Shown here: positions 1-12,688 of the stretch, piece after piece
How positions within the stretch are numbered: position 1 is the first letter of the stretch
Layout of the letters: each line of letters begins with the position of its first letter
Assembly: GCA_040752695.1 (NCBI GenBank)
Contig: JBFMGO010000144.1
Coordinates: 1-12,688 of the forward strand
Direction: 5' to 3'
DNA: 12,688 nt
Source: a bacterium
GTDB taxonomy: Bacteria; SZUA-182; DTGQ01
The notes under the pieces: generated by a model
Told to the model about the DNA's origin: nothing
Seen by the model: the letters and a program-made list of their open reading frames with translations, nothing else
Databases searched by the model: none
Made by a program: the position numbers and the translations under genes

Positions 1-57
1 ACAATCCTCATCTTGGAAGAAATTGCTTATCAGTTTGGAATGGTGAAAAAATTTCCC

Positions 58-86
58 TTGACAGAAAAAATCTATAGAAGTACAAT
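58..86 (+). promoter_or_regulatory. Sigma70-type promoter
   Basis: TTGACA (58-63), 17-bp spacer, TACAAT (81-86), 40 nt upstream of an ATG with an SD. Confidence 0.8.
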
Positions 87-126
87 GAGGTTAATCATGA
101 TAAATAAAAAATTAAATGAGGTCAAT

Positions 127-318
127 ATGGAAAAAAAATATTTAACTACTAAACAAGTTGCTGAATTTCTTACGCTTAGTATTGGTACAGTTAAGGGATT
201 GATAAAAGAAGATAAAATTCCTTACTATCGAATAGGAAAACGAATAGTTTTTGATCAAGAAGAGATAATCAAATGGGTTGAATCACAAAGAGAAGAACCA
301 AAGGCGGCCACAAGATGA
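127..318 (+). CDS. Excisionase-like helix-turn-helix DNA-binding protein (HTH_17-like), 63 aa
   Basis: YLTTKQVAEFLTLSIGTVKGLIKEDKIPYYRIGKRIVFDQEEIIKWV is a typical HTH_17 pattern. Start moved from 13 to ATG 127 because of SD GAGGT (118-122) and the promoter at 58-86. Confidence 0.88.
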   Translation: MEKKYLTTKQVAEFLTLSIGTVKGLIKEDKIPYYRIGKRIVFDQEEIIKWVESQREEPKAATR

Positions 319-611
319 GCACGAGTACACAGGTAGTTGAACTATTCAATATTTTTGCTGAAACCTTTGGTAAAGAAAAGGCTCAAATTGCCATAAAAGA
401 TATCGAGGAAATAATCGATGCACGCAAACAGGATCTTGCTACCAAGGGGGATCTTCTTACAGTAAAAGCAGAACTGAAAGAGGATATCAAGCAAGTTGAA
501 TTGAAGCTTACCAAAGAGATAGAGCAGGCAAAATCGAGCACGATTAAATGGGTTGTTAGTCTCATAATAGCTCAGACAGCAGCTATTATTTCAGTAGTTC
601 TCTTGAAGTAA
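315..611 (+). CDS. DUF1640/CCDC90-like coiled-coil protein with C-terminal membrane anchor
   Basis: LATKGDL neck motif, heptad coiled coil, then IKWVVSLIIAQTAAIISVVLL hydrophobic tail. ATGA overlap with the upstream gene. Confidence 0.8.
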   Translation: MSTSTQVVELFNIFAETFGKEKAQIAIKDIEEIIDARKQDLATKGDLLTVKAELKEDIKQVELKLTKEIEQAKSSTIKWVVSLIIAQTAAIISVVLLK

Positions 612-614
612 GTC

Positions 615-689
615 GGTCTCGAAAGGTGTTACGAGCACCATTCCGAGACCTGGCCAGCATGGTCTTTTGGTGTCCCTACCATGCCGGTT
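615..689. other. Two adjacent stem-loops in the intergenic leader (candidate cis-regulatory or antisense RNA)
   Basis: GGTCTCGAAA (615-624) pairs 9/10 with TTCCGAGACC (641-650) around GGTGTT-ACG-AGCACC. A second imperfect stem pairs GGCCAGCATGGT (652-663) with ACCATGCCGGTT (678-689). Confidence 0.55.
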
Positions 690-694
690 AATGC

Positions 695-703
695 ATTATA
701 CCA
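695..703 (-). promoter_or_regulatory. Extended -10 element on the antisense strand
   Basis: The minus strand reads TGGTATAAT (TGn + TATAAT), pointing back across the 615-689 hairpins. Confidence 0.5.
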
Positions 704-737
704 CAAAGGGACCCCTCCAGAGAGGGAGGGAATTTTC

Positions 738-1085
738 ATGGATCATCCTTCAGATGTTTCTACCACCACATTGCAATCCAGTATTGAGAAATTATTCGGT
801 ATCAGCAATCTTGCCACGACACTATCTTACCAGATCCGGGAGGTTGCCACGGTGATTATCGGCTGCATCCAGGAGCTTAACCCCACGGTGACACCGAAAG
901 GCAGGGCAGAGGATATCGAGATCATGGGCCAGATGACAGTGCAGGAGCTTCGGCAGGTGGTTAATCTTGAGAATACCAGGCAGGGCCTTATAGCTCAATG
1001 GCGGGAAGCTGAGGCACAGAAACAACAGCTTATTGACCAGGCCAGAACACGCATTGCTGACCAGGGAGGGCCGGATCATGCTTGA
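738..1085 (+). CDS. Hypothetical helical protein (115 aa; alternative start 681)
   Basis: Open frame, SD GGAGG at 725-729 before ATG 738, coiled-coil-like C terminus, stop overlaps the next start. Confidence 0.65.
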   Translation: MDHPSDVSTTTLQSSIEKLFGISNLATTLSYQIREVATVIIGCIQELNPTVTPKGRAEDIEIMGQMTVQELRQVVNLENTRQGLIAQWREAEAQKQQLIDQARTRIADQGGPDHA

Positions 1086-1359
1086 AAATCTGTCTCTTTT
1101 TGATCTGCGGCGAATCCTTTGTGCTATGTCTGTAATTCAATCGATGGCTAATGATTTACCGGATAAAAAAACATTAGATGCGGCAATCGAAGAAATTAAT
1201 CAAAAAATCGGTAATCCCCTGGAAAAACTTCTTGGCAAAAGTACACAGCAGGATAAGACGCTTGATAGCAATTCGGCTATTTTGGATAAATATGAGCAGC
1301 AGCTTATGACCGCCGAGCCAGAGAAAAAGCCAAAGAAGAGAGGCAGGGCCGCGAAATGA
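1078..1359 (+). CDS. Hypothetical protein with basic C-terminal tail (93 aa)
   Basis: SD GGAGG at 1065-1069 before ATG 1078, 8-bp overlap with the upstream gene, ends KKPKKRGRAAK. Confidence 0.65.
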   Translation: MLENLSLFDLRRILCAMSVIQSMANDLPDKKTLDAAIEEINQKIGNPLEKLLGKSTQQDKTLDSNSAILDKYEQQLMTAEPEKKPKKRGRAAK

Positions 1360-1586
1360 GCAAGGTATCGAATGATAAAATCACCGTCTCTTTCACCAAA
1401 GACCAATGGGAAGATGTTATTTCCTGCCTTGAAGCGGTTGATAAAGCAAAAAAAATGATCAATACGGGCTTGTTATCAGCCGAAGGTGGATCAAAATACT
1501 TTCTCAAGATGGTTATGCGTATAAAATCGGAGGTTGAAAAATCCTCTCCACAGGCCGAGATAATCAATCTGAATGTTTTTAGATAA
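1356..1586 (+). CDS. Hypothetical protein (76 aa)
   Basis: ATGA overlap with the upstream gene; followed directly by terminator-like hairpins. Confidence 0.65.
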   Translation: MSKVSNDKITVSFTKDQWEDVISCLEAVDKAKKMINTGLLSAEGGSKYFLKMVMRIKSEVEKSSPQAEIINLNVFR

Positions 1587-1590
1587 CCAT

Positions 1591-1660
1591 GGCCTTCGGG
1601 CCTTGCTCCTGGCAGGGGATTTTCCTTGGAAGGGTTTATCTCCTGCCGGGGGCTTTCTCT
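1591..1660 (+). terminator. UUCG hairpin plus 16-bp stem-loop (probable terminator or structured RNA)
   Basis: GGCC-TTCG-GGCC (1591-1602). 1605-1620 pairs fully with 1638-1653 using three G-U wobbles on the + strand, followed by TTTCTCT. Confidence 0.55.
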
Positions 1661-1716
1661 AAATTCCAAACGGTTTGGAATTTGTCCCACGGTGGGATTT
1701 TTCTCACCGTGAGAAA
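1661..1716. repeat. Three adjacent palindromes, each with a 1-nt centre
   Basis: AAATTCCAAAC-G-GTTTGGAATTT (1661-1683), TCCCAC-G-GTGGGA (1685-1697), TTTCTCAC-C-GTGAGAAA (1700-1716). Confidence 0.85.
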
Positions 1717-1769
1717 TTTGACCATTGACCCATGGGGAGGTTTTTAACATTTTTCCTCCCTGGGGGAAT

Positions 1770-2066
1770 GTAACCCACGATACAAACACTGTAACCGGGA
1801 ATGTGACAGGTGACACAGGACAAGGTAACAATCCAAGAGGCTGCACGAATAGCCAATATCAGTAGAAAAACCCTTTACCGATGGATTGAAAAAGGGTTGA
1901 TTTCCAGAGAGAAAGATAAAAATCTTTCCTTTGTGTCCCTGGCCGAAGTCAAAGCAGTATGTGACAGGGTAACAAACCAGCAGGATACAGAGAATGTGAC
2001 AACAGGTAACACTCAGGATGCACAGCAGGATACAATCAGGGTAACAGAGGATACAAACACGGTTAC
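1770..2066 (+). repeat. Two clusters of short GTAAC/GTGAC/GATAC direct repeats (1770-1830 and 1959-2066)
   Basis: 1770-1795 matches 2041-2066 at 21/26. GAATGTGACA at 1799 and 1992. ATGTGACAGG at 1801 and 1959. Confidence 0.75.
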
Positions 2067-2382
2067 ACTTAAACTTGAATATTACAACGGCTTGATAACC
2101 AGGCTTGCAGGGCTGGAGATCGAGCGGCGCTACCTTCTGGAGAATAAAGAGGGACTTGAGGCCAGAGAGCAGGAATTGACCGAGACCAGGGCAGCACTTA
2201 CGCGGGCTAATAGCGAATTAAAGCGGCTCTTGGAAGTGAAAAAAGATGCTGATCAGAAAGCAGTGGTGCTCCTTGACCAGCAAAGAGCACTGGAAGCACG
2301 GGAACGAGAGTTGCGGGAACTGCGGGCAGAGAATGAGCGGCTTAAGTTACCGTGGTATAAAAAGCTATTCAGAAGTAAGTGA
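1810..2382 (+). CDS. N-terminal HTH, linker, long coiled coil and amphipathic C-terminal helix (RacA/pSK1 Par-like architecture)
   Basis: VTIQEAARIANISRKTLYRWIEKGLI HTH, T/Q/D-rich linker, heptad region, ends LPWYKKLFRSK. GTG start without a clear SD. Confidence 0.75.
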   Translation: MTQDKVTIQEAARIANISRKTLYRWIEKGLISREKDKNLSFVSLAEVKAVCDRVTNQQDTENVTTGNTQDAQQDTIRVTEDTNTVTLKLEYYNGLITRLAGLEIERRYLLENKEGLEAREQELTETRAALTRANSELKRLLEVKKDADQKAVVLLDQQRALEARERELRELRAENERLKLPWYKKLFRSK

Positions 2383-2431
2383 TTGAAAATAAATAATATA
2401 ATAGGCTAGACTTAAGGTGATGGTTTAAGAA

Positions 2432-3250
2432 ATGAATGAACTGGATAAAGATCAAGGCAAAAGGGATTTTTTTAATTTTCTTGTAGATGTGAACAAGTGC
2501 TTCCATGCCGACTATGCAGATTACTTTTTTAGATTAAGTGATGTGGCAAAAGGTTATGCCAGAATATTAACTATAATAAAAAAGATAGTTGATTACAGGG
2601 AAGAAGAAGAAAGGCAAAAGAAAAAAAGACTCCCCTTCTATGAGTTGTATAAAAAAATAGAAGACGACCTCAATACTATTTATGCGCGAATGGAAATACA
2701 TCCCGATGCAGACATAGTGTATTTTCCAGGAAGTTTGTGGATAGACGGATTTTTTCATGATACACACGCCAAGAGTGCTATCTATGAAATGCTTGACCCT
2801 AAATTTAAACTTCCCGATAACCTGGAAGATGATTTAAAGCTTGCTGTTCATTGTTCCCTGGGAATTGCCGGTGCTTTTCATTCATTAGCTTGCGGTTCAG
2901 GCGTTGAAATACCTGTAGCTATCTTGCTGTTTTTGTATGACCATCTTAATAATCTAATCGAAAAAACAACAGAACTACTCCACGCGATAGAAAAACGCGA
3001 ATTACTTGGAGACCGGAATAGTAAAAACGCTTCGAGTGTTCATCTTAAAATCAATAAAATCAAATTGAGCGACCAATACCCAAAACTTAAACGAGTACTA
3101 AGCAATTTCGATGGAACACAAGAGGGAAAAACGGCTATTGATAGGATTGTCTCTAAAATTATAAAAACCAGGAACGAAAAAACCCTACGAAAATACAGAC
3201 AATATCTTTTAAATAGCCTTGATGAAGAAAAACAAGAGGTTAATTTATAA
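2432..3250 (+). CDS. Hypothetical protein (272 aa, AT-rich, basic helical C terminus)
   Basis: Long ORF in AT-rich DNA; possible promoter TTGAAA (2383)-18-TAGACT (2407). No family recognised. Confidence 0.75.
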   Translation: MNELDKDQGKRDFFNFLVDVNKCFHADYADYFFRLSDVAKGYARILTIIKKIVDYREEEERQKKKRLPFYELYKKIEDDLNTIYARMEIHPDADIVYFPGSLWIDGFFHDTHAKSAIYEMLDPKFKLPDNLEDDLKLAVHCSLGIAGAFHSLACGSGVEIPVAILLFLYDHLNNLIEKTTELLHAIEKRELLGDRNSKNASSVHLKINKIKLSDQYPKLKRVLSNFDGTQEGKTAIDRIVSKIIKTRNEKTLRKYRQYLLNSLDEEKQEVNL

Positions 3251-3253
3251 TTC

Positions 3254-3315
3254 TTCGCGGTAAAAACGATTCTTTTTACCGCGAAATATCACGGTAAAAA
3301 CGATTCTTTTTACCG
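3254..3315. repeat. Direct duplication of a 24-bp inverted-repeat unit
   Basis: CGGTAAAAA-CGATTC-TTTTTACCG at 3258-3281 and 3292-3315. The first copy extends to perfect 13-bp arms (3254-3266 and 3273-3285). Confidence 0.92.
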
Positions 3316-3343
3316 ACTATTTTTCGATAAGTCAATAAGTTAC

Positions 3344-3372
3344 TTGATAAACTTATCAAAACAAGATAAGAT
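3344..3372 (+). promoter_or_regulatory. Putative promoter of the replication operon with an overlapping palindromic operator
   Basis: TTGATA (3344-3349), 17 bp, TAAGAT (3367-3372). The palindrome TTGATAA-AC-TTATCAA (3344-3359) covers the -35. Confidence 0.55.
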
Positions 3373-3397
3373 ATATTCAATTAAACGAAAGTGACCC

Positions 3398-3517
3398 AAA
3401 AAGCGAAAAGGGCTTAAATCAGCTTACCGACCAAGATACTCTGATTTAAACCCTCACCATCACGCTACCGGCTTTTTTTATCCAGTAACTATTTCGCTTC
3501 GGCTGTAGCTACAGCCT
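3398..3517 (-). ncRNA. Candidate counter-transcribed antisense RNA (about 120 nt) over the replication operon leader
   Basis: Minus-strand promoter TTTACT (3552-3547), 17 bp, TATAAA (3529-3524) with TGn extension. A 14-bp stem (3409-3422 with 3441-3454) has its single mismatch as G-U only on the minus strand and is followed there by TTTCGCTTTTT. Confidence 0.4.
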
Positions 3518-3526
3518 TTTTTATTT
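3501..3526 (+). terminator. Intrinsic terminator (possible attenuator) upstream of the RHH-rep genes
   Basis: GGCTGT-AGCT-ACAGCC followed by TTTTTTATTT. Confidence 0.65.
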
Positions 3527-3573
3527 ATAACACATTGATTTAAAAAAGTAAAGATAGAAAGGAGTCAAGGTTA

Positions 3574-3756
3574 ATGGTAATCGAGGACAAAAACTATGTA
3601 ACAATTTCTTTTCCCTGCCCAAAGTCAATCCACAAAAAACTGAAAATGGTTGCCACGGCAAAGGGTAAGACCGTCAGAAACTTCATTCTTGAATTGTGTA
3701 CGGAGGATCTTTTTGAGCGACCGGAAAATAAAGAATTGCTTGCTGGATTGAAGTAA
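3574..3756 (+). CDS. Ribbon-helix-helix DNA-binding protein (CopG/ParG-like)
   Basis: VTISFPCPKSIHKKLKMVATAKGKTVRNFILEL fits the beta-strand/helix/G-x-T/helix RHH pattern; SD AAGGAG at 3559-3564. Confidence 0.75.
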   Translation: MVIEDKNYVTISFPCPKSIHKKLKMVATAKGKTVRNFILELCTEDLFERPENKELLAGLK

Positions 3757-3770
3757 GGCAGGGCCGGAGG

Positions 3771-4592
3771 TTGGATCGAGGTTGGGTTAAACTTTGGAGA
3801 AAATCACTGGATAGCCAGATATGGCAGAATGCAGAATTATGGCATTTATGGTGCTGGTGCATCCTCAAAGCTACTCATAAGCCAATATGGGTAAAAGTAA
3901 GAACCGGCAAGGGATTCACGGAGGTTAATCTTGAGAGAGGTCAATTTATCTTCGGGAGAAATCAAGCCGCAAAAGAACTGCATCAAAAACCATCCTCAAT
4001 TTACAAGCGATTGCTAAAATTAAAAAATCTTCAAAATTTGATCATCCAAGATAACAACCAATTTTCTATAGTAACTATTTGTAATTATGATCTTTATCAG
4101 CCAGAGAAAGAAGAGGAAGGAACAACCAAGGGAACAACCAAGGAACAACCAAGTAGCACAAACAAGAACAAAGAGCATTTAGAGAAGGAAATAAAAAAAC
4201 CTTCTTCCTTGCCAAAAAAAGACTTGGCAAGGGGGGGGTGTGTCCCTGAAATTCCCTACAAAGAAATCATCGACGATCTAAACGAGAAAGCAGGGAAGCA
4301 CTTTTCCCCTGCTACCAAAGACACGCGGGAACATATCAACGCACGATGGCGGGAAGGCTATCGCCTGGACGACTTCAAGCAGGTGAACACCGTCAAGTCT
4401 GCCCAATGGCGAGATGATCCACACTGGAATAAATTTCTCAGGCCGAGTACTTTGTATAATTCGGAAAAATTCGAGGGATATCTGAACGAGAACACAGATA
4501 TTAAGCCACAGGAAACGCCAGAGGACCAGGCCGCAAGAGAGAACAACGAGGAGATTATGAGACGGTTGAAGGAGAAAGCCAAACATGACTGA
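3771..4592 (+). CDS. Phage-type replication initiator with conserved phage C-terminal domain (Phg_2220_C-like)
   Basis: N-terminal GWVKLWRKSL..W and LERGQFIFGR ... SIVTICNYDLYQ typical of phage initiators. C-terminal IIDDLNEKAGKHF...ARWREGY...FLRPSTLY..EKFEGYLNE. Internal iterons; precedes a DnaB-like gene. TTG start. Confidence 0.88.
   Translation: MDRGWVKLWRKSLDSQIWQNAELWHLWCWCILKATHKPIWVKVRTGKGFTEVNLERGQFIFGRNQAAKELHQKPSSIYKRLLKLKNLQNLIIQDNNQFSIVTICNYDLYQPEKEEEGTTKGTTKEQPSSTNKNKEHLEKEIKKPSSLPKKDLARGGCVPEIPYKEIIDDLNEKAGKHFSPATKDTREHINARWREGYRLDDFKQVNTVKSAQWRDDPHWNKFLRPSTLYNSEKFEGYLNENTDIKPQETPEDQAARENNEEIMRRLKEKAKHD
4119..4232 (+). repeat. Iterons and inverted repeat within the initiator gene (probable replication origin)
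   Basis: GAACAACCAAG at 4120, 4132 and 4143, then an A-rich tract and CCTTGCCAA-N8-TTGGCAAGG (4207-4232). Confidence 0.7.
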
Positions 4593-5868
4593 TCGAGTTT
4601 TTGAGAGACAGGTCTTATGCTGCATCCTGCTAGATAATAAGCTCATCTACCAGGCCATACCGCAGCTATCAGACGATGATTTCGAGGATTACCGGAATGT
4701 ATCTATTTTCCGGGCCTTGAAAAAGCTTATTGTCGAGGAAAAACGTGATGCCGATATAGCCCTCCTGAGAAACCTTGTCGATTTCGAGGACTCCGGCTCT
4801 TATCTTGTCGATATCTTCAATGCACTTCCTACGGCAGGGCGTATTGATAACTATATCCAGCAGGTGAAGGAGTATTCAGCCAAGAGAGCTTTATACAGGC
4901 ACTTCCTGGCATCGACAGAGGAAGTGAAAAAACTTGACAAGCTTAATTTCAAGGAATGGCTAAACCAAAAAGAGGCTCAATTCACTGGCATTCTCAACAG
5001 CTATCGTAAGGAAGTGGTCAAGGATTCATTCAATCCGAAGGTTTACACTCAGAGAATGCGTTTTCTTTATCAGCAGTATCGAGAAAATCAGGCAGATTGC
5101 AGGGGGCCTAAGACCGGGTTTAGGATTCTTGATGAAATGATGGGAGGCTTACGGCTCCTGAATATCCTGGCCGGGACCACCGGGGCGGGAAAATCGACTC
5201 TTGCACAAAATATAGCCCTCAATATTTCCATTCAGCAGGGCATACCTGTTCTGTACATCAACTACGAAATGGAAGCAGATGACTTGCACTGCCGAATGAC
5301 TTCATGCTTATCTCAAGTCAAGTCTGACAAAATTAAGGCTGGGCGCTGTAGTGTTCAGGAATGGGCAGCGGTTGACGCTGTTATAGACCTGATCGAGAAA
5401 ACCGGAACTTTGCACATTACGGATAATGCAAGCCGCGACATTAACGACACTGTAGCTTTGATTCACTACTACAAACAGCGATTCGGGGTTAAAGTCGTTT
5501 TCGTGGATTACATCGGAGAAATAGAGGGTGATTCCCTGGCCCACAAAGAGCGGAACGAATATATAACTTATGGCCGGTATACCCAAACATTGAAAAATAC
5601 CTGTTCCTCTCTTGGTATCCATTGCTTTCTGGTTGCTCAATTCAACAGACAGGGCGATAAGGACAAATCTCCGCAAAGAAGTAATATTCAAGGCTCATGG
5701 AAGCTTATCCAAAAGGCTGATGTATTCATGGCCTTGCACTACGACGACAAGGAAAAGCAGCACAATTTGACAATCCAAAAGCAAAGACATGGAAAGTATC
5801 CATACAAGATAGGCTTTAATTTTCATAAAGATATTCACAAGTTTGAAGAAATACCAATGATGTTTTGA
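4585..5868 (+). CDS. dnaB: DnaB-like replicative helicase (SF4), phage type
   Basis: N domain ERQVLCCILLD...LSDDDF..YRNVSIF, Walker A ILAGTTGAGKST, YEM catalytic Glu, Walker B VFVDYIG, AQFNR, IQKAD, KQRHG arginine finger. 8-bp overlap with the initiator gene. Confidence 0.92.
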   Translation: MTDRVFERQVLCCILLDNKLIYQAIPQLSDDDFEDYRNVSIFRALKKLIVEEKRDADIALLRNLVDFEDSGSYLVDIFNALPTAGRIDNYIQQVKEYSAKRALYRHFLASTEEVKKLDKLNFKEWLNQKEAQFTGILNSYRKEVVKDSFNPKVYTQRMRFLYQQYRENQADCRGPKTGFRILDEMMGGLRLLNILAGTTGAGKSTLAQNIALNISIQQGIPVLYINYEMEADDLHCRMTSCLSQVKSDKIKAGRCSVQEWAAVDAVIDLIEKTGTLHITDNASRDINDTVALIHYYKQRFGVKVVFVDYIGEIEGDSLAHKERNEYITYGRYTQTLKNTCSSLGIHCFLVAQFNRQGDKDKSPQRSNIQGSWKLIQKADVFMALHYDDKEKQHNLTIQKQRHGKYPYKIGFNFHKDIHKFEEIPMMF

Positions 5869-5925
5869 ACGGTGTGACCCTGGCGGCTGCAATCCAGCAG
5901 GGCCACAAAAAACGGAGTTTAAACC

Positions 5926-7299
5926 ATGAATAGGGTAGTAGAAATCGAGCTTGGTTGTCAAATCACGCTGGATAAAAACCAGCTACCGACCAGGCTCCTT
6001 GACCAGATCAAGAGCTTTTTGACGCTGGATAACCCACGGTACAAGCAAGCTGATGAGCATGGATACAGCACTTATGGTATCGCAAAGTTTATCTATGCCT
6101 ATCACGAGGATGAATCTTGTCTCTACGCATATCGCGGCTACATCGGCTCCTTGCTGCCATTCCTGACGAGAAGCGGGTTGCAGTATCGAATCATCGATGA
6201 TCGGCGCAAGTTGCCGGAGATCGAGCTTTCTTTCCGTGGAACACTGCGACCATACCAGGAAAGAGCGGTTACTGAGGCACTCAGGAAGGATTTCGGCATT
6301 GTGGTTGCGCCATGTGGGGCCGGAAAAACGGTAATAGCTTGCGCGGTTATCGCATCCAGGAAACAGCCTACACTCATTATCGTCCATACCAAGGAGCTTT
6401 TGAATCAATGGCGCGATAGGCTTACTCAATATCTCGGTATTCCTCTTGATGAGATTGGGGTGATCGGTGCCGGAAAAGAGCTTATCAAGCCCATTACGGT
6501 GGGTATGGTTCAAACACTGGCAAAGCGTGACCTGGCAGAGATTCGGCAGCACTTCGGCCAGATTATAGTTGATGAGGTTCATCATTGTCCGGCGAGCACG
6601 TTTAATGAGGTTATCACATCCTTTGATTGCCAATATCAATTGGGGCTTTCGGCCACTCCATACCGGCGTGATGGCCTGGGGAAGCTGATCTATCTTACCC
6701 TTGGCAATGTGGCCACTGAGATTACAGATAGAGACCTGCAACAGGCCGGGACCAGGATAAAACCTGAAATCGTGGTCAGGGAGACCGGCTTTGATTTCGA
6801 TTACTGCGAGGACTCCGACTATCAGCCTATGGTAAGTGCTCTTATTGCAGATCCAGAGCGAAACGCTTTGATATGCGCTGATGTGATTTCGGAGAATCAA
6901 TCCGGGGAAAACCTTTCCCTAATCCTCTCCGACAGGAAAGCTCACCTTGCAGACCTGGCCGAGTCTCTTCATAACTTCGGGGTTGACTGCGCTATTCTCA
7001 CTGGCGACGTACCAAAGAAGCAGCGGGAGCAGATTATCCGGGATGCCGAAGGTGGAAAGCTTCGGGTGATCCTGGCGACTGGGCAGCTTGCCGGGGAGGG
7101 GCTTGACCTGCCAAAGCTTAACCGGCTGTTCGTGACCACTCCGATCAGATTCAGGGGCCGGATTACTCAATACATCGGGCGGGCGCTGAGGACGGCGGAG
7201 GGCAAGACCGATGCCAAGGTTTATGATTATGTGGACCCGGTTGGTATATTGCAATCAAGCTATCGGAGCAGGCAGAGAGTATATGATAGTATCAATTGA
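5926..7299 (+). CDS. Superfamily 2 DEAD/DEAH-box helicase (XPB/SSL2/ResIII-like)
   Basis: Q motif LRPYQ, Walker A APCGAGKT, DEVHH, SATP, GEGLDLP, QYIGRALR; SD GGAG near 5914. Confidence 0.93.
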   Translation: MNRVVEIELGCQITLDKNQLPTRLLDQIKSFLTLDNPRYKQADEHGYSTYGIAKFIYAYHEDESCLYAYRGYIGSLLPFLTRSGLQYRIIDDRRKLPEIELSFRGTLRPYQERAVTEALRKDFGIVVAPCGAGKTVIACAVIASRKQPTLIIVHTKELLNQWRDRLTQYLGIPLDEIGVIGAGKELIKPITVGMVQTLAKRDLAEIRQHFGQIIVDEVHHCPASTFNEVITSFDCQYQLGLSATPYRRDGLGKLIYLTLGNVATEITDRDLQQAGTRIKPEIVVRETGFDFDYCEDSDYQPMVSALIADPERNALICADVISENQSGENLSLILSDRKAHLADLAESLHNFGVDCAILTGDVPKKQREQIIRDAEGGKLRVILATGQLAGEGLDLPKLNRLFVTTPIRFRGRITQYIGRALRTAEGKTDAKVYDYVDPVGILQSSYRSRQRVYDSIN

Positions 7300-7533
7300 T
7301 ACAACGTCTGATAACATACCATATGTAAACTTAAGTTTACCGATTGCCTATAACCTCTTGTAATGATTATGCTTGTGAATACATAATTAAACCTGTTCAT
7401 TAACTGCACTGTTCACGAATTGCACAGCAGATAAGGTGCTGATAAGATTGATCGATATCGTAAGATATAAGATAGGTTAAAATAATATCATAAGTGATAA
7501 GGAAAGAATGAGACAAGGCAAGAGACAAAGGGA

Positions 7534-7546
7534 TAAGTCATTGATT
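7534..7546 (-). promoter_or_regulatory. IHF consensus site
   Basis: The minus strand reads AATCAATGACTTA, an exact match to WATCAANNNNTTR, just upstream of the cos-like site. Confidence 0.5.
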
Positions 7547-7582
7547 ATTAGTGGGTTAGATGGGAGGTGGGGGGGTAGGGAT

Positions 7583-7660
7583 AGGTACTTCCGGGCCAAT
7601 AGCCAATTGCTGTTTCGGCCAAAGGCTCGTTATTTTTCTACGCCGGAATTTCAAAAAATA
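7583..7660 (+). other. Putative lambdoid cos-like packaging site
   Basis: AGGTACTTCCGG resembles lambda cosQ context (GGGTCCTTTCCGG). CTCG and a T-run follow 36 nt after the heptamer, echoing the right side of cosN. It lies immediately upstream of a Nu1-like gene. Confidence 0.45.
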
Positions 7661-7694
7661 GGGTGTCAGTCAGTCAACCAAGGGAGATAAGTAA

Positions 7695-7982
7695 TTGAAA
7701 AATAAAGCTAAGAAAAATGATAAAATAGACGAAAATAAAGTAGAAATAGGTGAATTTTGTGAAGTTAAGCGAAAAGAATTTTTTTGTTACACTGCCGAAG
7801 GGCTTGGGCAAGTGCTAGGAAAATCAGAGAGATGGGTACACCGAATGTTAAAAAAAGGTGCTCCTGAAAAAGAAGAATTTTCCAAGGGTAAGTTTGGTTA
7901 TAGTACCGTCGCATGGACTCATTTTTTAATTTTCTATGAGCTTAAGTTTGGTGGTCAAACTAAAAATAGTGAAGACGATTGA
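7695..7982 (+). CDS. Nu1 (small terminase)-like winged-HTH protein, short form (Rpp-like candidate)
   Basis: TAEGLGQVLGKSERWVHRMLKKGAP...GKFGYSTVAWTHFL aligns by eye with lambda Nu1 NKKQLADIFGASIRTIQNWQEQGMP...GNEVLYDSAAVIKWY. TTG start with SD GGAG at 7683-7686. Confidence 0.62.
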   Translation: MKNKAKKNDKIDENKVEIGEFCEVKRKEFFCYTAEGLGQVLGKSERWVHRMLKKGAPEKEEFSKGKFGYSTVAWTHFLIFYELKFGGQTKNSEDD

Positions 7983-8011
7983 TTTTGCAGGCTTTTGAGA
8001 GGGAATAAATA

Positions 8012-8212
8012 ATGACTACACAGCAGATTATCACCGAAAAATGGCTCACAGTGCCAAGTGTCGCACGGCGGCTCGATATGTCCGAATCATCGGTTAGAAG
8101 AGAGATTAAATCCGGGCGACTCCGGGCCTATAAATTCGGCAAGCTTATAAAAATCTTGGAATCGGACGTGCTTGTATACCGTGAAAGCTGTATTGTTTGC
8201 CCTCAAAATTGA
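8012..8212 (+). CDS. Excisionase-like HTH_17 DNA-binding protein
   Basis: WLTVPSVARRLDMSESSVRREIKSGRLRAYKFGKLIKILESDV; SD GAGGGA. Confidence 0.88.
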   Translation: MTTQQIITEKWLTVPSVARRLDMSESSVRREIKSGRLRAYKFGKLIKILESDVLVYRESCIVCPQN

Positions 8213-8219
8213 TGATTTC

Positions 8220-8255
8220 ACGCCATTTGCACCATACGCACCATTGACGCCACAA
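8220..8255 (+). repeat. Four tandem 9-bp imperfect repeats
   Basis: ACGCCATTT GCACCATAC GCACCATTG ACGCCACAA (core RCRCCA). Confidence 0.8.
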
Positions 8256-8259
8256 CCTA

Positions 8260-8287
8260 TTGATAATATAGCTATATCTGGTAAAAT
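8260..8287 (+). promoter_or_regulatory. Promoter giving a probably leaderless transcript
   Basis: TTGATA (8260-8265), 16 bp, TAAAAT (8282-8287) with TGn extension. ATG 8294 lies 7 nt downstream and has no SD. Confidence 0.6.
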
Positions 8288-8293
8288 ACTAAT

Positions 8294-8854
8294 ATGCAAA
8301 CACAGTATCTTTCAGTTTCAGAGACAGCACAGGAACTATCTTTGACACGTAGTGACGTAAAAAAGCTTATCGGTGAGGGGAAATTAATCGCCTATACTTT
8401 CGGTAATGACCTGCGTGTTAATGTCGTAGATTTGCAAAATTTCATTAAAAAATCAAAGGTTGAGGTATCAATGAACTCATACGAATTAGCAACAAAATAT
8501 TTGTTTCATGTGGTACAGGCATGGAGTACGTCCGGCGAAGATGGTTCGCTTGCTCAGGCTCACGAAAAAATTTCCGCCGTTTTTCCCGCAGGTAGTCAGG
8601 CTTACCAGCAGCATAAAGAGGAAATTCTTAACGACAGCGGCAAAAATCAGGCTTCGGCATCATCCACACAGCAGGCCACACCGTCAACAAATCCTGCATC
8701 GGCTGGATTATCGGCAGGTGATCGGCTTAATAAGTTGATCGAGGCGAAAATACTTCAGAATCCGAAAATGAGCTACATGGCCGCTTTTAATGAGGTTCAG
8801 GTTGAAAATCCTGAGCTTACGAAGCAGTACGAACAGGAGATCTATCATCGATGA
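8294..8854 (+). CDS. Excisionase-like HTH fused to a helical domain with a phage scaffold-like C terminus
   Basis: YLSVSETAQELSLTRSDVKKLIGEGKLIAYTFGNDLRVNVVDLQNFI HTH, in-frame internal ATG 8471 with SD GAGGT, S/A/T/Q linker, C terminus AGDRLNKLIEAKI...MSYMAAFNEVQVENPELTKQY. Confidence 0.75.
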   Translation: MQTQYLSVSETAQELSLTRSDVKKLIGEGKLIAYTFGNDLRVNVVDLQNFIKKSKVEVSMNSYELATKYLFHVVQAWSTSGEDGSLAQAHEKISAVFPAGSQAYQQHKEEILNDSGKNQASASSTQQATPSTNPASAGLSAGDRLNKLIEAKILQNPKMSYMAAFNEVQVENPELTKQYEQEIYHR

Positions 8855-9462
8855 GCAATTCTTATATTAACAAAATCAAGCAGATCGAGCAGGACATTGC
8901 CAAGACCATCGAGCGGCTAACAGCTACGCAGCAAAAAGTTAATGAGCTAAAGCCACGGATTGAAAAGGCTGAAACCTTATACCGCGAACATAGAAAGGCT
9001 CTCGCTTTGTCAGAAAATGTTGACAAGCGGGGCGTCTCTGAAGCTCAGAAAACACTCAATTTTCTCAGGAGCGACCTGGACGAGGCTGTTATCTTGGTTG
9101 AAGCACTGGGAGATAAGCGGGTGCAGCTTGAAAACGACCTTGTAGCAGCTAAACAAGCTCTGACGGACCACGAAAATGAAATTCTTTCAGGCAAAGCTCA
9201 AAAATTGGTCGATGATTACACCAGGGCCATTACCGAAGCTTACAGTGCTGCATTCAGGTTGAAACTTGTTAGCCAACGGGTAACGGCTAACAACGGCTCA
9301 CTAAAGTTTGACTATCCACTCTCAACCTTTGAGGCTTTTGAGCTGGTTTACCAAGGCTTTCCACTTCTTGAAAGTGGCGACGGTGGATACTGCCGGAAAC
9401 TTTCCAGCAAGTATCTAAAACCGGAAGAGATCCAAGCTATTTGGGCTGATTTATTGAAATAA
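8851..9462 (+). CDS. Long coiled-coil hypothetical protein (203 aa)
   Basis: Heptad-rich for about 140 aa; ATGA overlap with the upstream gene. Confidence 0.8.
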   Translation: MSNSYINKIKQIEQDIAKTIERLTATQQKVNELKPRIEKAETLYREHRKALALSENVDKRGVSEAQKTLNFLRSDLDEAVILVEALGDKRVQLENDLVAAKQALTDHENEILSGKAQKLVDDYTRAITEAYSAAFRLKLVSQRVTANNGSLKFDYPLSTFEAFELVYQGFPLLESGDGGYCRKLSSKYLKPEEIQAIWADLLK

Positions 9463-9563
9463 ATCTTCCATCCCGTGAACGACAAAGCGCGAGTTGGATA
9501 TCAAGGGCGGGTTAAATCCTTCTCCCTCCTTTGAAAATTAAAATTATCCAATTTTATCTAAGC

Positions 9564-9597
9564 GGCCAGTGCCTTACGGGGCGCTGGCCAATTTTTT
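9564..9597 (+). terminator. Intrinsic terminator
   Basis: GGCCAGTGCC pairs with GGCGCTGGCC (one G-U), followed by AATTTTTT. Confidence 0.7.
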
Positions 9598-9609
9598 AGA
9601 AAGGTTAAT

Positions 9610-11979
9610 ATGAAAAAAATAATTATCGCAATATTAATATCTTTTACTTTATTTTTTGCCTTCAATGTTTGTGCACTCACTCAATTTCGGCGTACAACAC
9701 TTACCGGCGTAACTGGGATGGTAGGAATAAATGGCGCATTGCTCAACGACGGAGACCTCTGTCAAGTGGTTGACGCAAACAACTTTATTTTAACTTATCG
9801 CCTTGACTCCGATTCCGGGGCCACCGAATCAAGTCCTGAGATTTTGGCTCCTACTACCAATCCCGGATCGAAGAGATGGATCAGACAGCACAATTTTCGG
9901 GACCGAATCTCAATTGGTGAATATAGTGATAGTCTGGCTACAGCGATAGCCAATGCCGGAATATTAAAAAGAACGGTTTATATTGACACCAACATATCGC
10001 TTGCTTCAAATGTCATTGATCCAAACAATTTGAGCATGGAGATCGGGAAGAACGGCATTGTTCATCTCGGAAACTACAACTTAACCATATGGGGAGATTT
10101 TGAGTGTCCTTCGAATCATCAGGCTTTTGTGTATGACGGAACGGGAACCGTTACTTTTAAAAATCGTCCGCCTGTAGCGCATCCTGGGTGGTGGGGAGTA
10201 AAGGCGGATGGGGCTACAGATGATACAACAGCTCTCCAAAGTGCCATTAATTGTGGTCTGGGGTGCTATCAACTTCCACAAGGGATAATCAAGCTGACAT
10301 CTTCCGTTGTATTGAAAAATCCAATGAGGCTGATTGGGAGCGGTCACATAACTGATGTCTCTGGAGTGGGAACCTTGATCTGGGAAGATACAAATGTTCC
10401 GGCAATTTACTTGAATGGGCACGATTATAATATTCAAGATTCTTACCTTGCCAATTTTGATATCGTATCAGAGGGTGACGGTATCAAACTTTACGAATCG
10501 CATCGGAATACTATTCAGGATGTCCAAGTAAAGGCCGGGACAAAGGGGTGGGGGTTTGTCCTTGATGGATCTTACGAAAACAGGCTAATAGCATGTACAG
10601 CCACGACCAACGGATACAGCCCTCATACTTATACTACCGGCTATGCAGGTCATTTTGCCGGAGGGTTCCGTCTTTACAAGGGGGCGGCTTCTTACGGGCC
10701 GAACGCATCAGAATTAATTAATTGCATCGCTTCGTGTGGGGGAACGGGTGTCTATATTGGTGACATTGCTGCAATGTATGCAAATATTTATGGCGGCACC
10801 TTCGAAGGCAATGATTATAATTTGCATATAAAATCAGTTACTTTGCCTGTTAATATTCACGGATCTCACTTTGAAGCCGCCGAAGTCGAAAATATTAAAT
10901 TGGAGTCGGTTTCGGACATTCATTTTTATGGCATCGGCGCGATGGGTACAGGGTTGTCGAATCAATCTGTAGAAATGGTTTCGGCTACCAATTGTACTTT
11001 TAGTGATTCTTACTTGGGGTATGTGGCAATCGATGCAAATTGCCGGGACAATATCTTTAAAGATTGTACTGCGTATCATACCTATTTCGAAGATGCCGGG
11101 ATAGGCACGGAAATTATAAATTTAAAGAACCGATCAACGGATGAATACGGATATGGAAATCGCACTGATGTTGGAGTAGCCAATTTAGTAACCAACGAAG
11201 ATTTCGAACGGTGGGCAGACCCAAACACTCCTTGCGACTCAATAGAGCAGACCTGCTATGCCACAAAAGAGGGAACGATTATTAAATTCGGCACTTACTC
11301 TGCAAAAATCGAGAGCAATGGCACTTATTCGGGGCTTAGATATAATGATCTTGGCGCAAAGTTAAAATCGTCTTATCTTACAATATCTTTCTGGTTGTAT
11401 GTTCCGACCGGGGCGACGGGGAATTTTGGTATTCGTGTATACGGATTGGATACATCTTGTATTGTCTGGGACAGCGCAGCCGCTATTGGTTTTGATTCCT
11501 GGAAGAAAAAACAGTATACGGTCTATGTTGGTTCTCCAGGTTCTGCCAGGAGATCTGGATCGATTGACGTTGCGGTAATCTGTGCTGGCGATGCCGTTGG
11601 CTCTACCGGATATATAGACGGGCTGGCTGTTTGTGACGGAAGAAACCAGGCAAACATACCGGATGTCAGTGCGGTATCAATCGTCACTAATCGAATAACG
11701 AGCGGATCTATTGCTCCTGCTTCCGGTGGGTATATTCAGGGGGATGTAGTATTAAATTCTGCTCCTGATGCAGGAGAACCATCCGGCTGGATGTGTACCG
11801 TATCAGGCAGTCCTGGTACATGGGTAGCGACAGGCCAGGTTGGATATAGATCGGGGTCGGGGGCTCCAAGTGTCAATGCGAATTTCGTGGGGGAAGATTA
11901 CCTGGATACAGGGGCAAGTAAGTGGTATAAGTCAATAAGCACCGGATCGGGAGCGGGCGATTGGGTAGCGCTTAATTAA
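9610..11979 (+). CDS. Tailspike/depolymerase-like right-handed beta-helix protein with signal-peptide-like N terminus and CBM-like domain
   Basis: MKK, hydrophobic stretch and VCA cleavage-like site. WWGVKADGATDDTTALQSAIN (pectate_lyase_3/GH55-like start), N/G/I-rich beta-helix repeats, NLVTNEDFE (CBM-like jelly-roll start), and APASGGYIQGDVVLNSAP..GEPSGWMCTVSGSPGTW tail-protein motif. Confidence 0.85.
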   Translation: MKKIIIAILISFTLFFAFNVCALTQFRRTTLTGVTGMVGINGALLNDGDLCQVVDANNFILTYRLDSDSGATESSPEILAPTTNPGSKRWIRQHNFRDRISIGEYSDSLATAIANAGILKRTVYIDTNISLASNVIDPNNLSMEIGKNGIVHLGNYNLTIWGDFECPSNHQAFVYDGTGTVTFKNRPPVAHPGWWGVKADGATDDTTALQSAINCGLGCYQLPQGIIKLTSSVVLKNPMRLIGSGHITDVSGVGTLIWEDTNVPAIYLNGHDYNIQDSYLANFDIVSEGDGIKLYESHRNTIQDVQVKAGTKGWGFVLDGSYENRLIACTATTNGYSPHTYTTGYAGHFAGGFRLYKGAASYGPNASELINCIASCGGTGVYIGDIAAMYANIYGGTFEGNDYNLHIKSVTLPVNIHGSHFEAAEVENIKLESVSDIHFYGIGAMGTGLSNQSVEMVSATNCTFSDSYLGYVAIDANCRDNIFKDCTAYHTYFEDAGIGTEIINLKNRSTDEYGYGNRTDVGVANLVTNEDFERWADPNTPCDSIEQTCYATKEGTIIKFGTYSAKIESNGTYSGLRYNDLGAKLKSSYLTISFWLYVPTGATGNFGIRVYGLDTSCIVWDSAAAIGFDSWKKKQYTVYVGSPGSARRSGSIDVAVICAGDAVGSTGYIDGLAVCDGRNQANIPDVSAVSIVTNRITSGSIAPASGGYIQGDVVLNSAPDAGEPSGWMCTVSGSPGTWVATGQVGYRSGSGAPSVNANFVGEDYLDTGASKWYKSISTGSGAGDWVALN

Positions 11980-11981
11980 TA

Positions 11982-12266
11982 ATGATCAGTCTTGATTATT
12001 GCAGTATCCAGCCAGAGCAAGAGGACGGTGAACAGGCGTGTTCCCTGGAATTTTCTATGCTAAAACTTGCCGGAGCAGTTTTGGAAGTGGCGCTCATGGA
12101 TATTCAAAACAATTTCGAGCGGGATCAAGCTTTAAGATGGCTTTTCAATGACAACGACGAATATATTTTCAGTTTTCGATCTATCTGCCAATTACTTAAC
12201 ATTAGCCCTTGGCAGATCCGGCGAAGCGTGAAATCCTACCTGGCAAAGCATGGGCACAGAGCATGA
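11982..12266 (+). CDS. Conserved-looking hypothetical protein of phages/mobile elements
   Basis: LAGAVLEVALMD...ALRWLF...FSFRSICQLLNISP..IR resembles a recurrent uncharacterised small helical family. Starts 2 nt after the upstream stop. Confidence 0.7.
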   Translation: MISLDYCSIQPEQEDGEQACSLEFSMLKLAGAVLEVALMDIQNNFERDQALRWLFNDNDEYIFSFRSICQLLNISPWQIRRSVKSYLAKHGHRA

Positions 12267-12688
12267 TCAACTCACCAAAGATAATCCGGCTGCCACATCG
12301 AAGGACTTCTCTTATCGCTTCATTCCTGCGGGGCAGAAATGTTCGGACGGCTCAAGGATATGAGCGGGATCTGACCGACTTTGCAGGATGGCTGAATGCT
12401 GCCGACATCGAGGGGGCCGCGAAATCTCTCCTGGAGGGCGGACAAGGGGAGGCTAACCGGCTGGCACTGGATTACCGAGCAGCACTCATTGACCGGGGGC
12501 TCTCTCCTGCCACAATCAACAGAAGGCTCTCTACTCTCAGATCATTGGTAAAGCTGGCGCGGACATTGGGCCTTATATTCTGGACCCTGGACGTTGAGAA
12601 TATACGGGCGGCTCCTTATCGTGATATCAGGGGGCCGGGCCTATCCGGTTATCGTCTCCTCTTGCAGCAGGCCGGTAAGATCGGCGGG
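12263..12688 (+). CDS. Tyrosine recombinase (XerC-like), N-terminal core-binding domain; truncated by the window end
   Basis: Absent from the ORF track because there is no stop in the window. Manual translation from ATG 12263: MINSPKIIRL...FLRGRNVRTAQGYERDLTDFAGWL...ALDYRAALIDRGLSPATINRRLSTLRSLVKLARTLG...YRDIRGPG. T..Y..DL.DF and SPATINRRLS.LRS are SAM-like integrase motifs. Confidence 0.9.
   Translation, partial: MINSPKIIRLPHRRTSLIASFLRGRNVRTAQGYERDLTDFAGWLNAADIEGAAKSLLEGGQGEANRLALDYRAALIDRGLSPATINRRLSTLRSLVKLARTLGLIFWTLDVENIRAAPYRDIRGPGLSGYRLLLQQAGKIGG

Follow-up and report, generated by a model that had tools for sequence, protein, structure and literature searches.

The window, the entire 12.7-kb contig C144 (12,688 nucleotides) of genome G000, is judged from its sequence, with somewhat better than even confidence, to hold most of a capsid-less mobile island, a PICI-like satellite that would carry a CpmB-like scaffold mimic. 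A sequence-only reading had proposed a new type of phage satellite with plasmid-like control elements. A capsid-less element that exploits a helper is still the best reading, but the features named as defining the type do not define one.

Overall organization

The contig has no terminal repeat, and its ends were not found to overlap any other contig of the genome; it is incomplete on either side. The 17 complete genes are all open and the coding density is 0.88. Widespread pseudogenisation, named beforehand as a sign of a decayed prophage, was looked for and is not seen. Eighteen plus-strand genes (g1–g18) out of 84 ORFs of at least 40 aa were scanned, together with one minus-strand ORF (Pfam); the remaining ORFs are short or overlap the 18 genes. 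No match to TerL, portal, capsid or lysis genes was obtained for these 18 genes in Pfam, PHROGs or NCBIfam, as had been noted from the letters alone. No primase matched among the same genes (Pfam, PHROGs), no tRNA gene was found in the window, and PADLOC returned nothing more specific than generic HTH, helicase and coiled-coil matches. The search for elements with the same gene order, which the sequence-only reading had called for, recovered sister elements that share gene blocks, but no second element with the complete order.

Early region and replication module

The genes begin with g1 (127–318), an excisionase/AlpA-like regulator (HTH_17, E 2.6e-13) that has homologs in sister elements and is one of four HTH_17 genes in the contig. 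It is followed by g2 (315–611), a short CCDC90-like coiled coil with a hydrophobic C-terminal end and multiple copies in the genus; g3 (681–1085), which is of no known family and has a 67% identical homolog on contig C190 of the same genome; and g4 and g5 (1078–1586), small proteins whose ORF calls suggest translational coupling and which have no confident family in Pfam, PHROGs or NCBIfam. The g6 protein (1810–2382) combines a MerR/HTH_17 domain (MerR, E 1.2e-7; 31.9 bits, cut-off 28.2) with a coiled coil and has homologs in three sister elements; it corresponds to the AlpA/MerR/Stl-type regulator of the PICI core set, as that set is given in 10.1101/2022.09.14.508007. It had been called Par-like. 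The HTH and coiled coil are present, but there is no ParA-type Walker box and no plasmid match, and the score against NF038291 is 25.3 bits, under the cut-off of 85. The next gene, g7 (2432–3250), is of no known family, and its homolog sits behind the g6 homolog in G001:C99.

Two likely antisense RNAs were located on the minus strand. The first (615–703) has two hairpins and overlaps the start of g3 together with its RBS; a conserved extended -10 box lies at 695–703. Its folding z is -4.41 on the minus strand versus -3.11 on the plus strand, and the alignment of six homologs contains 24 pairs, two of them with compensatory changes. The second (3395–3534; z -5.80 on the minus strand) lies in the leader of the replication operon and has an extended -10-like box near 3524–3534; the same leader contains a terminator-like hairpin on the sense strand at 3501–3516 and is preceded by two tandem 27-nt palindromes (3255–3315, z -7.88) that are operator-like or terminator-like. 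The antisense RNAs anticipated from the sequence are thus conserved and structured, but neither matches Rfam, and the second leader, 75% conserved on C190, precedes a different HTH gene there. Such RNAs would hold down expression of the early operon and the replication operon.

The replication module opens with g8 (3574–3756), a putative RHH (Arc/CopG-like) repressor. Its earlier assignment to the RHH family agrees with weak matches to an Arc-like PHROG (phrog_582, E 3.9e-4) and to ParD (E 0.004), but the RHH match is below cut-off. A g8 homolog (33%) precedes the prim-pol in the sister element G005:C160. The replication genes that had been recognized are borne out by profile matches: g9 (3771–4592) is a phage-type initiator (Phg_2220_C, E 2.5e-26; phrog_428, E 2.3e-38), g10 (4585–5868) a DnaB-like helicase (DnaB_C, E 4.3e-39) and g11 (5926–7299) an SF2 helicase (ResIII, E 4.5e-30). 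Three 14-nt repeats at 4117–4153, inside g9, form a candidate origin. The g11 protein is 60–73% identical in two sister elements. Viral relatives were also sought through g11, and its 35 viral SF2 matches (27–29% identity) were uninformative; for g10, no DnaB relatives were confirmed in viral contigs.

Sister islands with primase-helicases or a prim-pol in place of initiator/DnaB share the RHH gene, the antisense leaders and the HTH–coiled-coil gene, so the replicon is a swappable module. The initiator/DnaB replicon, RHH plus antisense control and Par-like gene therefore do not mark a new type as had been suggested, and plasmid-like control was rejected as a defining trait.

The cos-like site and its surroundings

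A bipartite lambda-type cos-like site (7583–7629, plus strand) consists of GGTACTTCC, a spacer of about 19 nt and a conserved 18-mer. Of 49 viral loci that contain its 15-mer, 32 have it upstream of, and in sense with, packaging modules, and one has it in a different arrangement. The motif recurs in G001:C99, where the 18-nt word is identical in that other species, and a similar site stands ahead of TerS-GpA in the relative G005:C161. Both the viral loci and this relative support the cos-like site claimed earlier. The 17-mer of the cos core occurs at at least 120 genome loci and one viral locus, and no helper phage was found. Among 123 loci examined, a cosQ-like motif stood upstream at the G001 site (twice), in the window itself and at two loose matches, and at no other. 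Clear two-fold symmetry was not found at the putative cut site.

The adjoining g12 (7695–7982) encodes a 95-aa wHTH that lacks an oligomerisation or TerL-binding part. Atlas agrees with the label Nu1-like (Nu1, 0.90; 150 of 256 features), but g12 is only a wHTH fragment, and as a whole it has no Pfam, PHROG or NCBIfam match; its last 70 aa match phrog_57 weakly (E 0.027). The wHTH of the C44 cluster (see below) and the TerS of C161 (E 0.30) were considered as kin of g12 and show no detectable relation to it. Next comes g13 (8012–8212), an HTH_17 gene with homologs directly upstream of cos in G005:C160 and C161. As the earlier reading had pointed out, HTH genes, and not GpA TerL and portal, stand behind the cos–wHTH segment, an arrangement that departs from the order of lambdoid prophages.

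The cos site was probably acquired from a sister-island lineage carrying TerS and GpA TerL without portal or capsid, and the island appears to have lost TerL, so that cos cutting would need a terminase in trans. Alternatively, cos would be vestigial and the DNA would be packaged by a headful terminase. A fragment of a complete prophage, with its structural genes on other contigs of a fragmented assembly, would account for the two open contig ends, for the prophage-type initiator/DnaB and tail fibre, and for the other head and tail contigs in the genome. We regard this as very improbable, given that no TerL or portal follows the cos and wHTH, GpA terminase is absent from G000, the contig ends overlap nothing, the other head and tail modules belong to Mu-like prophages or to the host cluster, and sister elements carry these blocks without head genes.

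An HTH protein fused to a Mu-type scaffold segment

In the g14 protein (8294–8854) an HTH_17 domain is fused with a segment from the C-terminus of Mu-type protease/scaffolds. Its residues 128–184 are identical at 32 of 57 positions (56%) to the C-terminus of the resident protease/scaffold encoded on contig C44, which substantiates the scaffold-like tail seen earlier; it is the segment in which phrog_976 protease/scaffolds end. Of 93 viral loci with the tail motif, the best 80 include 79 with a protease and 70 with a matching capsid gene. The gene has a likely leaderless start and, in the same frame, a second start at 8471 preceded by an SD of its own; two forms of the protein may be made. An independent protein, P0003, encoded on a 15,996-bp contig, has the same HTH_17–tail layout at 43% identity and shares the internal Met; the fusion is therefore not a one-off deletion. 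No match to g14 was obtained in GenBank phages, no relatives of its tail or of P0003 were confirmed in viral contigs, and no solved relative of the tail was found by sequence; word-based protein searches with g14 and g15 found only themselves. By analogy with SaPI CpmB, the tail may bind the major capsid protein and compete with the native scaffold. For the capsid-morphogenesis component of the PICI core set, the window offers the g14 tail by homology, with no match to described PICI capsid genes.

The only resident head in G000 that matches the g14-type tail is that of the C44 head-tail cluster, which is genus-conserved, GTA-like and vertically kept; this operon lacks a tail tip, and its TerL has no neighbouring TerS. 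Of 42 ORFs that precede the portal gene in heads with this tail segment, none is GpA (29 are Terminase_6, 13 have no assigned family). Since tail-bearing Mu-type heads use non-GpA terminases, cos and scaffold indicate different helpers: the cos helper expected from the sequence agrees with the cos-like site, but not with a scaffold segment of Mu-type heads.

The coiled-coil protein g15

The coiled-coil protein recognized earlier, g15 (8851–9462), was modelled as a long helical hairpin and is a candidate Sid/Psu-like capsid-shaping factor (Atlas Psu cluster, 0.93). An intrinsic-terminator-like hairpin (9564–9589, plus strand) ends the g12–g15 block. A short tail gene followed by a coiled coil recurs in two other capsid-less elements, L222 and L227, where a protease-plus-tail gene of 188 and 197 aa, respectively, is directly followed by a coiled coil of 232 and 224 aa, with no capsid or portal match. 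These elements have retained the protease domain along with a tape-measure gene, and L222 also encodes a Mu transposase; in the present island the recombinase is of the tyrosine type, and a cos site and the HTH fusion are present. A profile of the L222/L227 coiled-coil family, built with g15 excluded, ranks g15 first among the six-frame segments of G000 (E 0.038), and none of 300 heptad shuffles reached its score; hhalign between g15 and this family is not significant (probability 0.7%). A profile of the C160/C524 coiled coils fails to find g15.

No Pfam Psu match was obtained at E up to 1, and a Psu/Sid fold is not among the Foldseek PDB, BFVD or two VIA fold listings, which contain generic hairpins only; the best Z of the fold searches, about 12, is at a level common for long helices. 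No solved relative was found by sequence, and relatives from the g15 alignment were not confirmed in viral contigs. The g15 protein may act like Sid/Psu. The assignment was graded weak.

Genes g16–g18 and the host head-tail cluster

The 789-aa product of gene g16 (9610–11979) is a beta-helix protein that resembles tail spikes or fibres and starts with a signal-peptide-like stretch. Its earlier description as tailspike-like is borne out by a tail-fibre PHROG match (E 3.6e-7) and by a homolog among the tail genes of a resident prophage. The gene has its own terminator and a promoter-like site upstream, no match in two congeners and no solved relative by sequence. Gene g17 (11982–12266), of no known family, has a homolog that is the last gene of the conserved host head-tail cluster in all three congeneric genomes. 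The recombinase, g18 (12263–12688), has a tyrosine-type N-terminal domain (Phage_int_SAM_1, E 7.1e-6; XerC, E 1.4e-5), but only its N-terminal 142 aa are present, the catalytic part lying past the contig end.

Taken with the C44 cluster, these genes would also suit a satellite that parasitises the host's own domesticated GTA-like head-tail operon and supplies its missing parts, as one member of a larger family, not described before, whose islands exchange scaffold mimics and replicons. This proposal is distinctly unlikely. The g14 fusion would then anchor the DNA of the element to proheads or alter their size, with g16 as a receptor-binding spike and g17 as a copy of the last gene of the operon, and some islands of the family would have a complete lambda-type terminase but neither portal nor capsid.

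Sister islands and the possibility of decay

The sister element G005:C160 has g1-, g8-, g11- and g13-like genes, cos, a TerS fragment, a coiled coil and an integrase, and no head genes. Its TerS fragment is fused to the gene that comes after TerL in C161 and C524 and appears to be a deletion product that arose by TerL loss. The 'tail repeat' protein of C524 and C160 was considered as a phage scaffold, and no tie to any phage scaffold was found.

A deletion product in C160 and the g12 fragment also fit decay. In that case the window would be a decayed or mosaic island, derived from terminase-bearing islands like C161 and C524, which has lost TerL and is no longer specifically packaged, with cos, wHTH, scaffold scrap and a tail-fibre moron retained as passengers. 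The truncation of g12, the C160 fusion, the mismatch between cos and scaffold, and the moron-like g16, with its own signals and unmatched in two congeners, agree with this account, but the complete genes are all open at 0.88 coding density, the HTH–tail fusion and its internal start are kept in P0003, and the 18-nt cos word is exact in another species. We consider decay unlikely.

Comparison with known satellites

SaPI1 CpmB and SaPIpT1028 Rcm are internal scaffold mimics and proposed competitors for capsid protein (PMC12409344). Like them, g14 of this probable satellite has a motif in common with a phage scaffold; unlike them, its tail is fused to HTH_17, has an internal start and has Mu-type (phrog_976/phrog_1005) heads as putative target, and a long coiled coil accompanies it in place of CpmA. 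The cos PICIs of Gram-negative bacteria (EcCICFT073, RppA/RppC; PMC6739421) resemble the island in having their own cos with cosQ/cosN-like parts and an adjoining TerS-like wHTH. The Rpp proteins have 144–153 aa and a helical dimerisation domain, compared with 95 aa in g12; the replicon here is initiator, DnaB and SF2, not primase, and the relatives carry their own GpA TerL.

With P4-like satellites (bioRxiv 10.1101/2022.09.14.508007) the island shares a long coiled-coil gene with language-model resemblance to Psu and a structured RNA in the replication-operon leader. In contrast to the P4-like set (Sid, Psu, Delta, Ash, alpha), there is no Pfam Psu, alpha primase-helicase, Ash or Delta match and no C4/CI Rfam match, and the island carries a spike gene. 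The serine recombinase given for PLE in PMC9618062 differs from the tyrosine-type g18. None of the cf-PICI set (own capsid, portal, protease and TerL) lies within the contig.

Rpp proteins use a TerS-like wHTH to stop the packaging of helpers (PMC6739421), and the two putative mimics here would be directed at two phage classes. Both points are consistent with an interference-only defence island in which g14, g15 and g12 would spoil the head assembly or the packaging of Mu-type and cos phages that enter the cell, and so shield the host, with no hijacking of particles. This is decidedly improbable; a cos site, full replicon and receptor-binding-type protein are not needed for such a role, and the PADLOC matches are generic. 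In the favoured satellite reading, the island would excise by its tyrosine recombinase and replicate by means of its own initiator and DnaB, while g14 and g15 together would redirect or shrink helper procapsids. The cos/scaffold mismatch, truncated g12, lack of a primase and open contig ends count against the satellite reading.

No satellite of Mu-type heads or gene transfer agents was found in a full-text literature search, which most subscription papers lie outside. Satellite scaffold mimicry is known from staphylococcal SaPIs; the island suggests that a widespread family of Mu-type heads is subject to it as well, here by way of a fusion to a DNA-binding domain. Relatives with cos, TerS and GpA but without portal or capsid suggest a further packaging strategy. 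If the host GTA-like operon is the target, domesticated virion genes would be shown to be open to renewed parasitism.

Gene content and genomic setting

The window is the entire contig C144 of the draft host genome (6.05 Mb, 239 contigs, 96.6% complete). The contig has no terminal repeat, and neither end shares at least 20 bases with other contigs of the genome. Its GC content is 43.8% versus 48.1% for the genome, and its tetranucleotide distance ranks 352 among 369 equal-sized pieces. Leaders and small genes are common to C144, other contigs of this genome and two congeners, which places C144 in the mobilome of the lineage.

The 18 genes (g1–g18) are all on the plus strand and mostly closely coupled, with a coding density of 0.88. 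Replication genes, as proposed in the sequence-only reading, were identified by family matches to a phage-type initiator (g9), DnaB (g10) and an SF2 helicase (g11), and the proposed absence of TerL, portal, capsid and lysis genes was borne out by zero family matches among the 18 genes. A prophage fragment is, in our estimate, an improbable source of this gene set, and a decayed mosaic is an unlikely, though appreciable, alternative. The recombinase is of the tyrosine type (g18), with only its first 142 residues present. HTH_17-type domains occur in g1, g6, g13 and the N-terminal start of g14, and g8 has a weak RHH match. The tailspike-like gene was also recovered: g16 is a beta-helix protein, and its nearest relative here, which sits in a baseplate context, is a tail-fibre protein from a resident Mu-like prophage (50% over 135 residues, 52% over 67 residues). 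The N-terminus of g16 resembles a signal peptide. Two related tail-fibre-like proteins (window 9610–9680 and locus L006, 6632–8809) each carry a hydrophobic, signal-peptide-like N-terminal stretch, which is unusual among virion proteins.

Control elements

For two leaders of C144 the minus strand gives the better fold (z −4.41 and z −5.80), and neither leader has an Rfam match. The first has six homologs; its extended -10 box is conserved and would direct an RNA across the start of g3. Its alignment contains 24 pairs, with compensatory changes in only two. The second is 75% conserved on contig C190, upstream of a different HTH gene (two sequences only). Antisense RNA control, as originally proposed, is plausible, though generic. 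The gene considered Par-like, g6, encodes an HTH and a coiled coil and recurs in three sister elements; neither partition-type nor plasmid-type matches were obtained for it.

A two-gene cassette of HTH_17 and CCDC90-like genes (window 127–611) has many copies in the genus (loci L061, L063 and L064; contigs C11, C28 and C33 of the host), also outside obvious islands, and is often followed by an antisense-RNA leader. The intergenic stretch 1589–1830 contains several hairpins and a 23-nt palindrome (1661–1683), and loose GTAAC/GTGAC-containing repeats at 2020–2066 extend into g6; together these form a putative centromere- or operator-like region.

The cos-like site and g12

The cos-like site between g11 and g12 is bipartite. 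Its 15-mer (7582–7596) is carried by 49 viral loci. At 32 of these the motif is followed, in sense orientation, by a ParB-methylase, Nu1 or GpA gene, in agreement with the proposed cos-like character; nine of the 32 have GpA or Nu1 within 3 kb, and 20 distinct sequences follow the motif in this set. Packaging genes match in any other arrangement at only 1/49 loci; the queries were drawn from the same 49 loci and named by Pfam, such that the control is the side asymmetry rather than the match rate. Two of the 20 phylum genomes have the bipartite form, one in the window and the other in a primase-type island of congener G001 (contig C99) that contains no packaging genes; the 18-mer is the second-longest exact word common to the two. 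GpA is found in one of the 20 genomes (G005, two places). On its contig C161, a similar cos-like site lies directly 3' of a g13 homolog and ~200 bp upstream of TerS (phrog_57, E 6.9e-13) and a GpA TerL. Both parts of the site can be aligned across four sites; the names cosQ and cosN, used for lambda, follow PMC6739421. The supposed Nu1-like gene, g12, does encode a wHTH, but of 95 residues and with weak TerS-like scores only.

The scaffold segment of g14

The scaffold-like tail was confirmed: residues 128–184 of g14 are identical at 32/57 positions to the C-terminus of the protease/scaffold (phrog_976) of the C44 cluster, a resident head-tail operon. Residues 60–186 gave 30 matches, including self, among 1.84 billion representative proteins. 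These comprise full protease ends, short repeated-tail proteins and P0003, which shares the HTH_17-tail layout (43% identity) and has an internal Met at the same place. In g14, this internal ATG (8471) is preceded by a Shine-Dalgarno (SD) sequence; the first ATG has none, and a promoter-like site ends 7 bases upstream of it. The motif occurs in 93 viral loci; among the best 80 of them, a protease is present in 79, a cement gene in 72 and a matching capsid gene in 70. Two exceptional loci, L222 (9572–13661, with Mu transposase and Mor-like genes) and L227 (element 187–4033), contain a short gene combining protease and tail, immediately after which comes a coiled coil; a tape-measure gene is close by, and neither capsid nor portal was matched. 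Judging from the tail position and the CpmB precedent (PMC12409344), the g14 tail would bind capsid protein.

Two or more tandem tail copies are present in P0004, P0005, P0007, P0008, P0013, P0017, P0022, P0023 and P0030. Some of these also contain a protease domain, and P0004 and P0005 each derive from a 5194-bp contig. Such proteins are possibly multivalent scaffold decoys.

The coiled coil g15

In both structure models g15 forms a long helical hairpin whose C-terminal part is not resolved, consistent with the coiled coil originally proposed. Two results favour a Sid/Psu-like role. Atlas gave a Psu cluster (0.93, with 195 of 256 features), ranked 17th after unnamed clusters. Built from four coiled coils of the L222/L227 type, a profile ranked g15 first in the six-frame host genome (E 0.038), and 0/300 heptad shuffles reached its score; this test is not fully independent, as 2/4 rows were found via an alignment containing g15. 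Other results speak against the role: hhalign gave a probability of 0.7% between g15 and this family, g15 has no Psu Pfam match, fold searches returned generic lists only, and the coiled-coil profile from G005 (contigs C160/C524) does not detect g15. A Sid/Psu-like role is a tentative lead.

Candidate helpers

Mu-like head modules are present on host contigs C85 and C189/C120, with an additional TerL on C153; the scaffold-tail profile matched only C44 and g14. The C44 cluster (L005, 184–12334) encodes TerL, portal, protease/scaffold, cement, capsid, adaptor, tail tube, chaperone, tape measure, a wHTH and a g17 homolog, and no TerS, integrase, replication gene or tail tip was seen beside it. 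It shares two genes with the window, the g14 tail and g17. The cluster is present in 3/3 genomes of the genus (G000:C44, G002:C1, G001:C133), with dS of 0.8–1.8 against G002, similar to uvrA (1.13) and hydrogenase (1.59), and dN/dS of 0.06–0.25 across both comparisons (purifying selection), which makes it a GTA-like operon kept by the host. Its tail genes are 56–79% identical to those of the C85 Mu-like prophage. In G002 (C1, 111594–112909; L089), the protease/scaffold frame is broken near residue 305 of the host protein, by assembly error or in reality.

That the element parasitises this operon is doubtful. The head family is frequent in phages (L177 head genes are 61–72% identical), which makes an incoming phage no less likely as the target. 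Upstream of the portal in scaffold-tail-bearing heads, 29/42 ORFs are Terminase_6, 13/42 have no assignment and 0/42 are GpA (42 of the 49 candidates, drawn from 62 portal-bearing loci); the cos-like site and the scaffold segment therefore indicate different helper classes.

Relation to known satellites and sister islands

We lean, by a modest degree, towards the window being a satellite. Within the contig, it falls outside the P4-like, cf-PICI and PLE groups (core gene sets from 10.1101/2022.09.14.508007). It is a possible PICI, and in function would be closest to one equipped with a CpmB-type mimic and a wHTH that is either Rpp-like or vestigial. According to PMC9618062, capsid-remodelling genes are missing from many environmental satellites. 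An island that acts by interference only is an improbable reading of the window. The literature searched yielded no description of satellites of Mu-type heads or GTAs.

Contig C160 of G005 carries, in order, a g13-like gene, an HTH gene, cos, a partial TerS, two small proteins that have repeated helical tails and a coiled coil, followed by g1-like, RHH, prim-pol, SF2 helicase (60% to g11) and integrase genes; this contig fragment has no head genes. In C524 (L371, 200–4338), TerS, GpA TerL and two small genes precede homologs of the C160 tail-repeat protein and coiled coil, and this 7.75-kb fragment has no portal or capsid. Both C161 (L370, 2195–5242) and C524 show cos, TerS, an intact GpA TerL and then small genes, making them candidate terminase-carrying, head-stealing satellites. 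The C-terminal third of the C160 TerS fragment matches the gene directly after TerL in C161 and C524, which suggests a deletion of TerL in C160. Replicons on these islands, all contig fragments, are of the initiator/DnaB type in the window and primases in C160, G001:C99 and L065. The window is probably a member of this group that lacks TerL and carries a Mu-type scaffold segment, and the sister islands would explain its cos/scaffold mismatch. Their gene orders point to an island plan in this bacterial family of cos, TerS, optional TerL, small tail protein and coiled coil, with swappable replicons.
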